Source: Pirellulimonas nuda
GTDB lineage: Bacteria > Planctomycetota > Planctomycetia > Pirellulales > Lacipirellulaceae
Assembly: GCF_007750855.1 (NCBI RefSeq)
Contig: NZ_CP036291.1
Coordinates: forward strand, 5,180,905-5,244,904
DNA length: 64,000 nucleotides
Reading direction: 5' to 3'
The position numbers and the translations under genes were made by a program. The notes beneath the pieces are model-generated. The model was not told the DNA's origin, did no database searches, and saw nothing but the letters and a program-made list of their open reading frames with translations. Shown here in pieces: positions 19,271-63,867 of this stretch; the stretch's first letter is position 1; every line of letters starts with the position of its first letter.

Positions 19271-20485
19271 ATGAAGTACGTGATTGTGATCCCCGACGGC
19301 GCCGCGGACGAGCCGCAGCAGTCCCTCGGGGGCCAGACCCCGCTGGAAGCGGCCCGGACGCCCCATATGGACGCCCTGGCCGCTGCCGGCGTGGTGGCGC
19401 GGGCGTGCCACACCCCCCGCGAGCTGCCGGCGGGTTCGGAGATCGGCAACCTCTGCCTGCTGGGGTACGACCCGTTCGAGCACTTCACCGGCCGGGCGCC
19501 GATGGAGGCCGCTGCCCAGGGGATCGAGCTCGGCCCCGACGACTGGGCGGTGCGCTGCAACCTGGTGACGATCGAAGACCAGGTGATGGTCGACTTCACG
19601 GCCGACCACATCGCAAACGCCGAGGGCGCCGAGCTGCTAGCGGACGTGCAGCGTGCGATCGCCAGCGACCCCAAGTGGCGCGGCGCCTTGGAGTTCGTGC
19701 CCGGCGTAAGCTACCGCAACCTGCTGATCTGGCGTGGCCAAAAGCTGGCGGCGCCCTTTTCGGCAGAGACCCGCACCCAGGCGCCGCACGACTGGACCGA
19801 CCTGTCGATCGCGGACGCCCACCCGCGAGGGCCCGGGGGCGACACTCTGGTCGAGCTGATGGACGCCACGGTCGAGCTGTTCCGCAACCACCCGGTCAAT
19901 CAGCGGCGGCTCGCCGAGGGGCATCGGGCCGCGACCAACGTCTGGCTGTGGGGCCAGGGGGGGGCGCCGACGCTGCAGCCGTTCGCCCAGAAGTACGGCC
20001 CCCGCGGTGCGATGATCACGGCGGTCGATCTGCTGCGTGGCATCGCCGCGCTGGTGGGCTGGGACCGCATCGAGGCGCCGGGCGCCACGGGCTACCTCGA
20101 CACCGACTACGCGTCGAAGGGGCGGGAAGCGATCGCGGCGCTCGATCGCTACGACATTGTTTGCGTGCACGTCGAGGCGCCCGACGAGGCGAGCCACGAG
20201 GGCCGCGTCGAGGAGAAGGTCAAGGCGATCGAACAGATCGACCGGCACGTGGTCGGCCCGCTGGTCGAGGCGCTCGGCCGCCACGGCGACTGGCGGATGA
20301 TGATCAGCCCCGACCACCCGACCTACCTCAGCACCAAGAAGCACACCCACGGCGACGTGCCCGTAGCGATGGCGGGCGCCGGCATCACACCGGACCGCTT
20401 CCAGCAGTACGGCGACTCCAACGCGGCGGCGTCGGACCTGGCGTTCGAGAAGGGCTGGGAAGCGATGCGGTGGTTCATCGGCTAG
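19271..20485 (+). CDS. apgM: Cofactor-independent phosphoglycerate mutase, archaeal type (ApgM-like)
   Basis: MKYVIVIPDGAADEP...; alkaline-phosphatase-superfamily iPGM of the ApgM type. Start at the internal ATG 19271. Confidence 0.75.
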   Translation: MKYVIVIPDGAADEPQQSLGGQTPLEAARTPHMDALAAAGVVARACHTPRELPAGSEIGNLCLLGYDPFEHFTGRAPMEAAAQGIELGPDDWAVRCNLVTIEDQVMVDFTADHIANAEGAELLADVQRAIASDPKWRGALEFVPGVSYRNLLIWRGQKLAAPFSAETRTQAPHDWTDLSIADAHPRGPGGDTLVELMDATVELFRNHPVNQRRLAEGHRAATNVWLWGQGGAPTLQPFAQKYGPRGAMITAVDLLRGIAALVGWDRIEAPGATGYLDTDYASKGREAIAALDRYDIVCVHVEAPDEASHEGRVEEKVKAIEQIDRHVVGPLVEALGRHGDWRMMISPDHPTYLSTKKHTHGDVPVAMAGAGITPDRFQQYGDSNAAASDLAFEKGWEAMRWFIG

Positions 20486-20518
20486 CGCATGGTAACCGCC
20501 AAGACGCGACGAAAGGGT

Positions 20519-20547
20519 GAACCGCCAAGGACGCCAAGAGCGCCAAG
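20519..20547. repeat. Left 29-bp terminal inverted repeat (GAACCGCCAAGGACGCCAAGAGCGCCAAG) flanking the GxxExxY gene
   Basis: Perfect reverse-complement match to 20993..21021. Confidence 0.8.
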
Positions 20548-20582
20548 AAGACGAAGAAAAGACGACGAAGAAATCACTAGCG

Positions 20583-20975
20583 ATGAATGAGCCCAGCGAG
20601 CAGGTAGACCAACTGGCGTATCAAGTGGTTGGCGCTGCGATTGAAGTGCACCGCGTGCTTGGCGCGGGCTTCCTTGAGTCGGTCTACGCCAAAGCGATAG
20701 CGGTTGAATTGTTGCTGCGAGGCGTCGCTTTCGAGATCGAGCACCCGATCTCGCTACGGTACAAGGGGCAGCCAGTTGGCGACGCAAGGCTCGATTTGCT
20801 AGTGGGCGGATTGCGCATCGTTGAGCTCAAAGCAGTTGAGCGCATCATCCCGATCCATCACGCCCAAGTGATCAATTATCTTAGGGCGACCGAACTTCAG
20901 CTTGGTCTGCTCATCAATTTCAACGTATCCAAGTTGACCGACGGCATCGAACGCGTTGTTCTCACCTCACACTGA
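20583..20975 (+). CDS. GxxExxY family protein (PD-(D/E)XK nuclease-like)
   Basis: Contains GAGFLESVYAKAIAVEL, EHPISLRYKG and RLDLLVGGLRIVELKA, characteristic of the GxxExxY family. Start at the internal ATG (MNEPSEQ). Confidence 0.7.
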   Translation: MNEPSEQVDQLAYQVVGAAIEVHRVLGAGFLESVYAKAIAVELLLRGVAFEIEHPISLRYKGQPVGDARLDLLVGGLRIVELKAVERIIPIHHAQVINYLRATELQLGLLINFNVSKLTDGIERVVLTSH

Positions 20976-20992
20976 CCCGACTTCTACACGTC

Positions 20993-21021
20993 CTTGGCGC
21001 TCTTGGCGTCCTTGGCGGTTC
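20993..21021. repeat. Right 29-bp terminal inverted repeat of the GxxExxY cassette
   Basis: CTTGGCGCTCTTGGCGTCCTTGGCGGTTC is the reverse complement of 20519..20547. Confidence 0.8.
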
Positions 21022-21051
21022 CCTTCTTAGGCGTCCCTCCCCCAGCGAGCT

Positions 21052-22830
21052 ATGGCACTCATCGTTCAGAAGTTTGGCGGCACTAGTGTGGCGGATGCCG
21101 AGAAGATTCGGGCCGCGGCGGGGCGGGCTCTGCGGGTGCAGCACCAGGGCAACCAAGTGGTGATGGTGGTCTCCGCGATGGGCAAGAACACCGACATGCT
21201 GGTCGACCTGGCCCAGCAGGTGTGCGACGACCCCCCGGCACGCGAGATGGACATGCTGCTCTCGACCGGCGAGCAGGTGTCGGTCGCCCTGGTGGCGATG
21301 GCCGTGCACGACCTGGGCGGCAAGGCGGTCTCGCTCACCGGCGGTCAGATCGGCATCCGCACCGACAGCTCGCACACCAAGGCGCGGATCCAGTCGATCT
21401 CTTCCGACCGCATGCAGAAGCACCTGGACGAGGGCGCCATCGTGATCGCCGCCGGCTTCCAGGGCGCCGACGACCAGCTCAATATCACCACGCTGGGACG
21501 CGGCGGGAGCGACACCACCGCGGTGGCGCTCGCCGCGGTGCTGGGGGCGGACATCTGCGAGATCTACACCGACGTCGACGGCGTTTTCACCACCGACCCG
21601 CGGCTGGTGGCCGAGGCCCGCAAGATGACCCACGTCAGCTACGAGGAGATGTTGGAGCTGGCGAGCCTGGGCGCCGGCGTGATGCACAGCCGGAGCATCG
21701 AGTTCGGCAAGAAGTTCCGCGTGCCGATCCACGTCCGCAATAGCGCGGTGTTCACCGACACGCCGGGTTCGATCATCGGGGCGCTGCCGGAGTCGCTCGA
21801 CCGCCCGGTGAGCGGGTGCGCGCTGACCAAGAACGAGGCCCGGATCGCGGTGGCCGGCGTCCCCGACAAACCCGGCACCAGCCTGACGATCTTCGCCCAG
21901 TTGGCGGCGCTGAACGTCGCGGTCGACATGATCGTGCAGGACGTCGGCTACGAGGGGCGTGCGGACATGTCTTTCACGGTGCTGGAGGCCGACCTCAACA
22001 AGGCCCTCAAGGCGGTGCGCGAAGCGGCCGACGCGATGGGCGCCGAGGGGGTGACCTGCGAAGAGGGCCTCTCCAAGGTGTCCGTGGTGGGCCTGGGGAT
22101 GGCGACCCAGCCGGGCGTGGCCGACCGCATGTTCCGCGCCCTGGCAGAGCACGACATCAACATCGAGGCGATTACCACCAGCGACATCAAGGTCTCTTGC
22201 CTGGTGCGACGCGAGAAGGGGATCGAGGCGCTGCGTGCGGTCCACTCCGAGTTCGAGCTGGAGAAGCCCCCCGCGGACCGGGCGACTTACGATGAGACGA
22301 TCGCCGCCAGCAAGAAAGTGGACGCGAGCGCCGTGGTCAGCGAGCTCAAGGCGATGGAAGACCTCACGATCCACGGCGTAGCGCTCGACGCTACTCAGGC
22401 GCGGATCACCCTGTTCGACGTGCCGGACCACCCGGGCATCTGCGCGGACGTGTTCGAGGCGGTGGCCGCGGAGGGGATTGTCGTCGACATGATCGTGCAG
22501 GGCTTCGGCGCCGACGGGCTGACCAGCGTGTCGTTCACTGTGCCGGCCGCCAGCCACGACGCAGCAAAAGAGGTCGCCGAAGGGCTCGCCGGGCGGCTCG
22601 GGGGCGAGGTGGCCACGAAGCCGCGGATCGCGATCCTTACCGTCACCGGCATCGGCGTCCGCAGCCACACCGGGGTCGGCCTGCGGATGTTCAGGGCGCT
22701 CAGCGGGGCGGCGATCAACGTAGAGATGATCAGCACAAGCGAGGTGAAGGTGAACGTCGTGGTGGCGCCAGAACACGGCGACGCCGGCATCGAAGCGCTC
22801 AAGAGTGCGTTCTCGGACGTGCTGACCTAG
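21052..22830 (+). CDS. lysC: Aspartate kinase (long form with duplicated ACT regulatory domains)
   Basis: MALIVQKFGGTSVADAEKIRAAA... kinase core followed by repeated ACT domains, 592 aa in total. Confidence 0.85.
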   Translation: MALIVQKFGGTSVADAEKIRAAAGRALRVQHQGNQVVMVVSAMGKNTDMLVDLAQQVCDDPPAREMDMLLSTGEQVSVALVAMAVHDLGGKAVSLTGGQIGIRTDSSHTKARIQSISSDRMQKHLDEGAIVIAAGFQGADDQLNITTLGRGGSDTTAVALAAVLGADICEIYTDVDGVFTTDPRLVAEARKMTHVSYEEMLELASLGAGVMHSRSIEFGKKFRVPIHVRNSAVFTDTPGSIIGALPESLDRPVSGCALTKNEARIAVAGVPDKPGTSLTIFAQLAALNVAVDMIVQDVGYEGRADMSFTVLEADLNKALKAVREAADAMGAEGVTCEEGLSKVSVVGLGMATQPGVADRMFRALAEHDINIEAITTSDIKVSCLVRREKGIEALRAVHSEFELEKPPADRATYDETIAASKKVDASAVVSELKAMEDLTIHGVALDATQARITLFDVPDHPGICADVFEAVAAEGIVVDMIVQGFGADGLTSVSFTVPAASHDAAKEVAEGLAGRLGGEVATKPRIAILTVTGIGVRSHTGVGLRMFRALSGAAINVEMISTSEVKVNVVVAPEHGDAGIEALKSAFSDVLT

Positions 22831-32820: not shown

Positions 32821-32920
32821 CCAGTAGTCCCAACTAACCGACGGGCTCCGCACCGTGGGGGTATCAAGAGCTAATTCGACCCAAGTGCACCCCGACGGGG
32901 CGGAGCCCGTCGGCTATTGG
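32821..32920. repeat. REP-like composite palindrome (two inverted CCAGTAGCCGACGGGCTNCGCCCCGTCGGG-type arms)
   Basis: Arm 32821..32861 pairs with arm 32891..32920. Same consensus as the elements at 35618, 43181 and 63778. Confidence 0.6.
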
Positions 32921-63573: not shown

Positions 63574-63777
63574 GGCGAAACCCTCACATCAAGGGAAACG
63601 CGGATCGAGGCGCCCCAACGCGAGACGCCAAACACACGGTCCGCCTACCACTATTATCGCGTATGAGCGGCGCATCGTTCGCCGCGGAATCGTTACGATT
63701 CCGTAGGCGGCGAAGTGGAGAGGAGGCCCCACAGCAACCGCAATAATCGGTCAATGCAGTCGCCCACCTCCACCAAC

Positions 63778-63867
63778 CAGTAGCCGACGGGCTACGCCCC
63801 GTCCGGGCGCTTCGGTAGACGTGGAGCACCGAGCCACTCCGACGGGGCGTAGCCCGTCGGCTACTGG
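63778..63867. repeat. REP-like composite palindrome (two inverted CCAGTAGCCGACGGGCTACGCCCCGTCCGGG arms)
   Basis: Arm 63778..63808 pairs with arm 63839..63867. Same family as the elements at 32821, 35618 and 43181. Confidence 0.65.

Follow-up and report, generated by a model that had tools for sequence, protein, structure and literature searches.

What keeps a single small gene of the GxxExxY family exactly between two perfect inverted repeats in the space between an apgM-like gene and the aspartate kinase gene lysC? The question is raised by a 64-kb stretch of the genome of Pirellulimonas nuda Pla175, analyzed here as a whole and called the window, in which the product of this gene is identical to Pla175_41070. 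An earlier reading made from the letters of the window (the sequence-only reading) saw a selfish, homing or miniature inverted-repeat transposable element (MITE)-like mobile cassette and offered, as an alternative, repeats that serve as operator sites for a toxin-like nuclease. The analysis presented here makes it on balance probable that the GxxExxY nuclease gene is bracketed by inverted arrays of its own heptamer, in a partnership resembling that between repetitive extragenic palindromic (REP) sequences and the REP-associated tyrosine transposases (RAYTs), and that it is an old tenant of this site.

The left arm, GAACCGCCAAGGACGCCAAGAGCGCCAAG, and the right arm, its perfect reverse complement, are 29 nt each and contain AAC and then three CGCCAAG heptamers with 2-nt spacers between them (Table 1). 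With up to three mismatches allowed, this sequence matches just the two arms in the window, and none of 100 dinucleotide-preserving shuffles contained a match, confirming the perfect repeats that the sequence-only reading had described. Among inverted repeats spanning up to 5 kb, none in the window is longer. Pfam and NCBIfam matches likewise confirm the GxxExxY gene between the arms and the identity of both neighbors, and the two further elements noted in the left flank, a purine-rich stretch and a partial third arm copy (AACCGCCAAG, 20494-20503), are both present. The proposed 503-bp cassette needs one refinement: the arms are exact, but the inverted repeat runs on beyond them. Inward it stretches to 40 nt at 88% complementarity once mismatches are allowed, and outward it continues in degenerate form on both sides, so that the structure fills the entire 566-nt intergenic space. 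Cassette composition is atypical, with a GC content of 56% and a GC content at third codon positions (GC3) of 66%, against a GC3 of 92% in the flanking genes.

The protein is, judged by its sequence and predicted structure, a PD-(D/E)XK-type hydrolytic nuclease and of no known transposase type. It matches PF13366 (PDDEXK_3) with an E-value of 1.9e-38 and 131.9 bits against a curated cut-off of 22, and TIGR04256 (GxxExxY) with an E-value of 5.6e-39 and 133.1 bits against a curated cut-off of 35. The motif that names the family is formed by G29, E32 and Y35, and an alignment of 35 homologs shows no variation at the catalytic-type residues E21, D71, E81 and K83. A confident AlphaFold2 model (mean pLDDT 92.7) has an alpha-beta core and a first helix spanning residues 6-26, and the nearest folds retrieved by Foldseek are those of lambda exonuclease, Cas4 and MGME1, all as weak matches (E ~5e-4, TM ~0.5). 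PADLOC returned a weak Cas4b match only (E 0.012), PHROGs gave no match for the protein, and a PDB sequence search with the family profile found no solved relative. A scan of viral contigs for the protein yielded one weak match, and the family is therefore not phage-borne; among plasmids it occurs in just seven records, all non-mobilizable and several of them large replicons. The searchable literature contained no functional study of the GxxExxY/PDDEXK_3 family and no paper printing the arm sequences: 15-mer arm strings led to no description, and 10-mer matches were to Widom-601 nucleosome DNA.

The repeats belong to the gene and are not a local palindrome, as becomes clear from its homologs. 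The alignment of 35 homologs was used to scan one genome per species, giving 80 loci (79 testable) from Planctomycetota, Cyanobacteria, Chloroflexota, Proteobacteria, Myxococcota, Bacteroidota, Acidobacteriota and others, and the best ungapped inverted repeat was scored between the 250 nt on either side of each gene. Shuffled flanks reached a maximum of 15, and 65 of the 79 loci scored 15-77; similar arms flank distant subfamilies as well. In nearly all of the 65 (L032 excepted) AAC is followed in the arms by two, three or four C-R-C-N-R-A-G units spaced 8-10 nt apart, with CGCCAAG, CGCAAAG, CGCAGAG, CGCGAAG, CACAGAG, CACGAAG and CACAAAG as the unit types. Each cassette uses one unit type for all units of both arms; in 48 of 58 the left and right arms have the same majority type. 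Within a cassette, the left and right arms are 96.4% identical in their unit bases and only ~50-58% in their spacer bases, and conservation therefore applies to the sequence of the units and not to perfect arm-to-arm pairing. Mutations in orthologous arms are uncompensated, and arm-to-arm differences in gene-bearing cassettes comprise 28 G-to-A and 41 A-to-G, near-equal counts that thus carry no wobble signature of an RNA stem. Some loci hold nested and tandem arm arrays (L021, L037 and L201). A divergent PDDEXK_3 paralog (Pfam E 6e-40) lies between the homoserine dehydrogenase gene hom and the apgM-like gene in L002 (~1266-1660) and L003 (~1290-1680) and has inverted arms of its own, TGAACC followed by three CACGACG units; the P. 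nuda window has no counterpart of it.

The left arm often lies close to the start of the gene. In many cyanobacterial cassettes (~2950-3000 in L039, L059, L031, L064, L015, L024 and others) the open reading frame (ORF) starts 6 nt before the arm, as ATG GAA ACG / AACC, and in L015 the left arm forms a short upstream ORF (uORF) ending 1 nt before the main ATG. In P. nuda a GTG just before the left arm is in frame with the gene and is a possible alternative start, in which case the arm would encode an N-terminal extension; the same in-frame ATG/GTG-AACC arrangement is found in 12 other cassettes. As a separate observation, GxxExxY genes on a Fusobacteria plasmid (L237, ~540-600 and 1000-1040) and a Treponema replicon (L234, ~1430 and 1870) are flanked by AATCCGTGT, which forms a 24-nt direct repeat in the former and a short inverted repeat in the latter.

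The strongest link between protein and repeat is their covariation. When the protein alignment was compared with unit type across 88 cassettes, unit position 4 and residue 9 shared a normalized mutual information of 0.82, unit position 5 and residue 12 of 0.93, and unit position 2 and residue 3 of 0.89, the last from a small sample in which G2 occurs with Glu or Gln. A cytosine at position 4 is accompanied by Asp9 in 40 of 40 cassettes, and Asp9 is found in none of the 33 with another base (contingency 40/0/0/33, Fisher 7e-22); G4 goes with Glu9 in 8 of 8, and A4 with Glu, Asn or Ser. At position 5, guanine is paired with Thr12 in 13 of 15 cassettes and adenine with Ala, Ser or Val. The order of the three residues along the N-terminal segment and first helix is colinear with that of their bases, and on a neighbor-joining tree built from residues 21-130 only, C4 and Asp9 switch at least 12 times in perfect step. 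Taken alone, the right arm gives a contingency of 34/0/0/31; it is ~400 nt away from the covarying codons and in most cassettes does not overlap the ORF, an exception being L232, where a 3' extension of the ORF includes it. Synonymous codons at the covarying residues vary freely, and the constraint therefore acts on the amino acid.

Two paralogs of one Chloroflexi metagenome-assembled genome (MAG) illustrate the rule: L022, with CGCCAAG arms, and L037, with CGCAAAG arms, share 73% identity and differ within their first 24 residues only at positions 2, 9, 10 and 12. The rule was also tested prospectively on distant members of the family (35-44% identity) taken from plasmid records, and it held in all three that were tested, at 39-42% identity: the Bacteroides finegoldii and Bernardetia members combine CACAGAG-type arms with Asn9 and Thr12, and the Sphingomonas member combines CGCGAAG arms with Glu9 and Ala12. 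In the P. nuda protein the predicted specificity residues are E3, D9 and A12. Because residues covary with unit bases, these comparative data are strong evidence that the GxxExxY protein reads its own flanking units directly, and the alternative offered by the sequence-only reading, that the arms are sites for the nuclease, is its best-supported part.

Arms also occur without the gene. A search with the arm pattern alone returned 19 viral-contig loci and at least 120 metagenome loci, and the counts given here and below for gene-less arms refer to the 139 loci listed. These hold 375 arms and 94 adjacent plus/minus pairs, 72 of which enclose less than 150 nt, in loops that are mutually unrelated. 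Three or four of the pairs enclose a GxxExxY gene, which is the only recurrent protein cargo; no other recurrent family was found among the arm-enclosed or arm-led ORFs of these matches. About 180 exact arms are listed; 103 are paired with an inverted arm lying on their inner side, and 44-73 are apparently solitary. Gene-less copies share the arms alone and differ in their interiors, and the hairpins often carry, after the arms, a polypurine tail resembling the P. nuda leader. Tandem arrays exist, some alternating two unit types (L201 and L160), and across many phyla arm repeats are found where housekeeping genes end. Of 47 additional arms lying near a cassette, 26 have the unit type of that cassette, compared with an expectation of 13.9 +/- 5.2 (p = 0.006). 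Separately, L134 (3206-3378) contains two adjacent hairpin-like units, CACAGAG outside and CGCCAAG facing outward inside, an arrangement that suggests one element nested in, or abutting, another.

The history of the P. nuda site can be followed in its relatives, where the apgM-like gene stands between homoserine dehydrogenase and aspartate kinase, so that the cassette interrupts what is seemingly a threonine-pathway operon. The cassette lies between the apgM-like gene and lysC in L001 (Bythopirellula), L002, L003 (Aeoliella), L007, L223 (Posidoniimonas polymericola) and L226, the closest available relative and our reference for identity figures. Relative to L226 the left arm is 93% and the right arm 97% identical, and the ORF is 88.5% identical at second codon positions and 45% at third positions, which are saturated; the leader is 60% identical. 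L226 shares the outer degenerate arm with P. nuda, and more distant orthologs have a single arm that starts at the apgM stop codon, as in L001, L002, L003 and L007. An empty site of the kind that the sequence-only reading proposed to look for exists in L222, where only 4 nt separate the apgM-like gene from lysC. Two further sites lack the gene: L221 (Posidoniimonas corsicana) has 144 nt with recognizable decayed arm remnants in its place, and L220 has a 230-nt gene-less hairpin with degenerate arms. Arms seem to decay after gene loss, although these are two cases only. The module at this site is, by these comparisons, old, mostly vertically inherited and sometimes lost by internal deletion, because its position is syntenic across genera, its arms are conserved against ORF third positions at 45%, and the sites in L220 and L221 keep remnants. 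No sign of a recent insertion was seen at the P. nuda locus. The sequence-only reading had held that repeats missing from other paralogs, together with a gene present at this locus in all relatives, would point to a local regulatory palindrome; the outcome is mixed, since other paralogs do have inverted-repeat flanks and many relatives do carry the gene here.

Elsewhere the picture is similar in part. Cyanobacterial cassettes are syntenic beside a divergent valS, yet unit and protein types differ between species; a 3-kb ORF-less region upstream of these cassettes, considered as a candidate rRNA, proved to be a long valS on the other strand. The distant members L231, L232 and L233 (plasmid or megaplasmid records) lie co-directionally and with tight gaps within housekeeping operons, the contexts being radA-[gene]-FAD protein, fabD-[gene]-fabG-acpP-fabF and ade-[gene]-mannose-1-phosphate guanylyltransferase; the Sphingomonas gene is the one whose 3' extension takes in the right arm.

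How might such a module work? The reading that we favor takes the general arm to be AAC with three CRCNRAG units, CGCCAAG in P. nuda, which the N-terminal segment and first helix would read colinearly through residue 3 and base 2, residue 9 and base 4, and residue 12 and base 5. One protomer would bind each unit, three to an arm, most likely on double-stranded DNA (dsDNA), which we infer because solitary arms and both orientations appear to be read equally. The nuclease would act in trans on gene-less hairpin pairs, solo copies and tandem arrays, cleaving at or near the arms, and the arms would be spread or maintained by cutting followed by host repair. In P. nuda the module is a co-directional tenant of the apgM-like/lysC operon. 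Action at the arms could take the form of cutting and host repair, homing into vacant hairpins, self-regulation or RNA processing.

Several observations weigh against this reading. Direct binding, a DNA rather than an RNA substrate, and cleavage are steps that we infer, and a PD-(D/E)XK hydrolase is by itself incapable of strand transfer. The window holds no further arm copies, and dispersed repeats are not shown for P. nuda itself. No recent transposition was detected: ORF pairs at least 90% identical share their flanks where these are comparable, except for two pairs of cassettes with differing downstream flanks. Some GxxExxY subfamilies have other flank motifs or none, and spacers that vary between 0 and 3 nt do not sit easily with a rigid oligomer bound to B-DNA. 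The left arm belongs to the translated sequence in some cyanobacterial cassettes, where it encodes an N-terminal extension, METNRQDAKDAKRR. Solo arms within 150 nt past a stop codon are biased, 42 in sense against 16 in antisense orientation; 26 of 295 listed arms share their first bases with the stop codon of an ORF 120 codons or longer (TGA-ACC, TAA-CC); and the solo arms of two phage-like IMG/VR contigs are co-oriented, all 11 on the minus strand in L098 and all 8 on the plus strand in L099. The strand bias, the stop-codon placement and the co-orientation are unpredicted by a pure dsDNA reading and may reflect an RNA-level role or selection on insertion sites; together with the translated cyanobacterial arms, which such a model does not explain either, the placement of solo arms keeps an RNA-level or insertion-tolerance component alive. 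As an observation in its own right, three inspected arms in L099 and four in L098 lie shortly upstream of an ORF start.

Among other explanations, the most serious, though unlikely, is that the module is immobile and its arms are DNA or mRNA operators through which a potentially toxic nuclease represses its own expression or destroys its own message, gene-less arms then being decayed cassettes or members of a regulon. The covariation, which shows the protein reading its own flanks, would follow from such autoregulation, as would a left arm that lies over or beside the start region and is sometimes translated or a uORF, a vertically inherited and operon-embedded module, and the decay of arms where the gene was lost (L220 and L221). 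It would be unusual, however, for an operator to lie past the stop codon and be conserved to the same degree as its upstream counterpart, and gene-less arms far outnumber gene-bearing ones among the matches listed, with intact units and unrelated loops. The nested and tandem arrays and the invariance of the catalytic residues are also poorly accommodated by regulation alone.

A second possibility, rather improbable in our estimation, is homing, in which the nuclease cuts between two inverted arms and its gene is copied into the gap by repair, splitting its own site and leaving gene-less hairpins as vacant targets. The gene does always lie between inverted half-sites, short-loop gene-less pairs are common among the listed matches, outer and inner arms are nested (in the P. 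nuda window and L226 among others), one syntenic cyanobacterial locus holds different unit and protein types by species, and the gene may be present or absent within one genus. Yet loop length in the putative targets varies between ~10 and 190 nt, and hairpins often resemble cassettes in having the polypurine tail and an ATG ahead of the arm, and therefore look like deletion derivatives and not virgin targets. No near-identical cassette pair was found in different contexts, and the element is in neither an intron nor an intein.

More doubtful still is an RNA-level element resembling an intervening sequence, with an arm stem that is cut by RNase III or hides a ribosome-binding site and so spares the operon. 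The predicted RNA fold of the P. nuda locus does pair the arms and close the entire intergenic space (minimum free energy -236 kcal/mol, z = -5.0), the insert is co-directional within operons, and solo arms are sense-biased after stop codons. A plain RNA stem is nonetheless disfavored, because spacers are only ~50% identical between arms, changes in orthologous arms are uncompensated, gene-bearing cassettes have no wobble signature (28 versus 41), and pairing cannot account for covariation with the protein, nor for unit conservation across phyla. Solo arms have no partner to pair with, and Rfam gave no match for 20300-21200 at a permissive threshold or for three cyanobacterial loci at the gathering threshold.

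It is highly unlikely that the covariation is a linkage artefact without physical recognition, arising when the left arm and first 14 codons are swapped as a block and the arms then undergo gene conversion. The covarying codons are just 30-60 nt from the left arm, and inverted repeats are able to homogenize each other; but sister paralogs show point changes at residues 9, 10 and 12 in a shared N-terminal context, Thr12 is paired with one unit type in contexts as varied as SQLTG, NRVTE, NVLSG, EQLTY and NRLTH, and the rule holds in members 39-42% identical. Least credible, and largely refuted, is an ordinary transposon or MITE-like cassette bounded by terminal inverted repeats (TIRs) and recently inserted between apgM and lysC: the perfect 29-nt arms, the GC3 of 66% versus 92% and the empty site in L222 would fit it, but position and architecture are common to several genera, down to the additional outer arm of L226, arm conservation contrasts with saturation at ORF third positions, no known transposase fold is present, no second copy lies in the window, and neither the window nor the inspected hairpins have a direct repeat adjoining the arms that could be a target-site duplication. 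The mobile cassette of the sequence-only reading therefore survives in part, in that gene-less arm derivatives exist and gene presence varies, while a simple transposon is unsupported because of the shared apgM-lysC position, the missing duplication, the sharing of arms alone, the non-transposase fold and the shared flanks.

The favored partnership of nuclease and heptamer array can be set beside known systems. In the REP/RAYT system, including the inverted REP doublets called REPINs, repeats lie in the immediate vicinity of the enzyme gene and occur as inverted doublets, singlets and clusters, and enzyme and repeat diversify together under vertical inheritance with occasional distant transfer (PMC3116915). 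The GxxExxY gene is likewise flanked by cognate repeats (at the 65 of 79 loci and in distant members), its arms are dispersed as doublets, singlets and clusters in metagenome and viral contigs and in gene-bearing contigs, residues 3, 9 and 12 co-diversify with unit positions 2, 4 and 5, and the module is largely vertical with occasional transfer between distant lineages. In contrast, the GxxExxY protein is a PD-(D/E)XK protein of ~130 aa and RAYT an HUH/Y1 (IS200/IS605-like) transposase; an arm is three tandem non-palindromic heptamers and a REP a short imperfect palindrome; unit sequences are common to several phyla, and genomes may hold several paralog types; and no excision or transposition footprint is known for the module. 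Having no HUH transposase, and a heptamer array instead of a palindrome, the module therefore works like REP/RAYT without being a member of that system.

With TIR-bounded insertion sequences and MITEs the module shares a single ORF between inverted repeats that are apparent binding sites, and gene-less versions that keep the ends. It differs in lacking a target-site duplication, in gene-less copies that share the arms alone, in its stable, syntenic position across genera and in its single 130-aa ORF, which encodes no DDE, HUH, serine or tyrosine recombinase. Free-standing homing endonuclease genes include PD-(D/E)XK types such as I-Ssp6803I, and a small nuclease gene amid what could be its own split site recalls them; the cassette, however, lies outside any intron, intein or conserved host gene, its putative target is a dispersed repeat with a variable central gap, and no homing event was observed. 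Further systems for comparison are the 23S rRNA intervening sequences with a small ORF and the transcribed hairpin repeats of the Correia and ERIC type. Like these, the cassette is a small insert with inverted repeats, presumably co-transcribed with host genes and with a long predicted stem; in contrast to them, it conserves the unit sequence and not pairing, its units covary with the protein, and no rRNA context was seen.

The remaining features of the locus are collected in Table 1. The apgM family comprises cofactor-independent phosphoglycerate mutases, and the best NCBIfam match of the upstream neighbor is the one given in the table. Scans of the cassette found no sigma-70 promoter and no intrinsic terminator, and tRNA scans found none.

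Table 1. Coordinates of the cassette and its neighbors in the P. nuda window.
Feature	Position	Strand	Remarks
apgM-like gene, upstream neighbor	19271..20485	+	PF10143/PF01676; best NCBIfam match TIGR02535 'proposed homoserine kinase', E 3e-150
Outer degenerate extra arm, AACCGCCAAGACGCGACGAAAG	20494..20515	+	direct repeat and inverted repeat; kept in L226
GTG just before left arm, in frame with ORF	20517..20519	+	152-aa ORF 20517-20975
Left arm	20519..20547	+	G, AAC, CGCCAAG units 20523-29, 20532-38, 20541-47; spacers GA, AG
Purine-rich, T-poor leader, arm to ATG	20548..20582	+	partly complementary to 20982-20992
GxxExxY / PDDEXK_3 gene Pla175_41070	20583..20975	+	130 aa; PF13366, TIGR04256
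Spacer from stop codon to right arm	20976..20992	+	unconserved, 41% identity to L226
Right arm	20993..21021	-	units 20993-99, 21002-08, 21011-17
Outer degenerate unit, reverse complement, GGGACGCCTAAGAA	21024..21037 (approximate as the end of the outward repeat)	-	inside a 12-nt stretch missing from L226
Aspartate kinase lysC, downstream neighbor	21052..22830	+	NF005656, E 1e-213; syntenic in relatives

A few observations on the surroundings stand apart from the cassette itself. In P. nuda the position upstream of the apgM-like gene is taken, instead of by homoserine dehydrogenase, by a 1070-aa ORF on the other strand. The slot between hom and the apgM-like gene holds an opposite-strand Uma2-family gene (PF05685), encoding another restriction-endonuclease-like protein, in L222 (477-878), and in L223 (330-780) and L221 (690-1130) a gene whose 122-aa product has a zinc ribbon at its C-terminus and falls into no Pfam family. 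This Posidoniimonas zinc-ribbon gene is flanked by inverted arrays of the tandem heptamer GATTGCG/GATTTCG; small ORFs between inverted heptamer arrays were considered as a general architecture and rejected, three zinc-ribbon homologs from elsewhere (L228-L230) being without such flanks. The window also contains a second long perfect inverted repeat, with 27-nt arms (CCAGTAGCCGACGGGCTACGCCCCGTC) around a 37-nt loop at 63777-63803 and 63841-63867. Its arms include the palindrome GTAGCC..GGCTAC, and a similar sequence, CCGACGGGCTCCGC, occurs as a 14-nt inverted repeat at 32838/32900; together they look like a separate REP-like element of the P. nuda genome.

GxxExxY/PDDEXK_3 is a widespread family that counts thousands of members, is often present many times in one genome and now has a concrete partner and a testable rule in which two or three residues appear to set which 7-base unit is read. 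Within the limits of the searchable literature, both the link between family and repeat and the residue-to-base rule appear to be new. The arms also account for spurious peptides such as LGVLGVLAV and NRQDAKDAK, which result from mechanical ORF calling through the repeats. The function of the family becomes testable, as do re-engineering of the rule and the question of whether a PD-(D/E)XK hydrolase can sustain dispersed repeats, as RAYTs are thought to. We suggest tentatively, and with some doubt, that GxxExxY proteins could form a large unrecognized class of small sequence-specific nucleases, with a simple, evolvable helix-to-base rule and heptamer arrays as long-term partners. If so, they would represent a nuclease-repeat symbiosis mechanistically unrelated to REP/RAYT, transposons and homing endonucleases, in which each GxxExxY protein would maintain, cut or regulate its repeat family chromosome-wide, and the large paralogous families of GxxExxY genes would be sets of orthogonal enzyme-repeat pairs.

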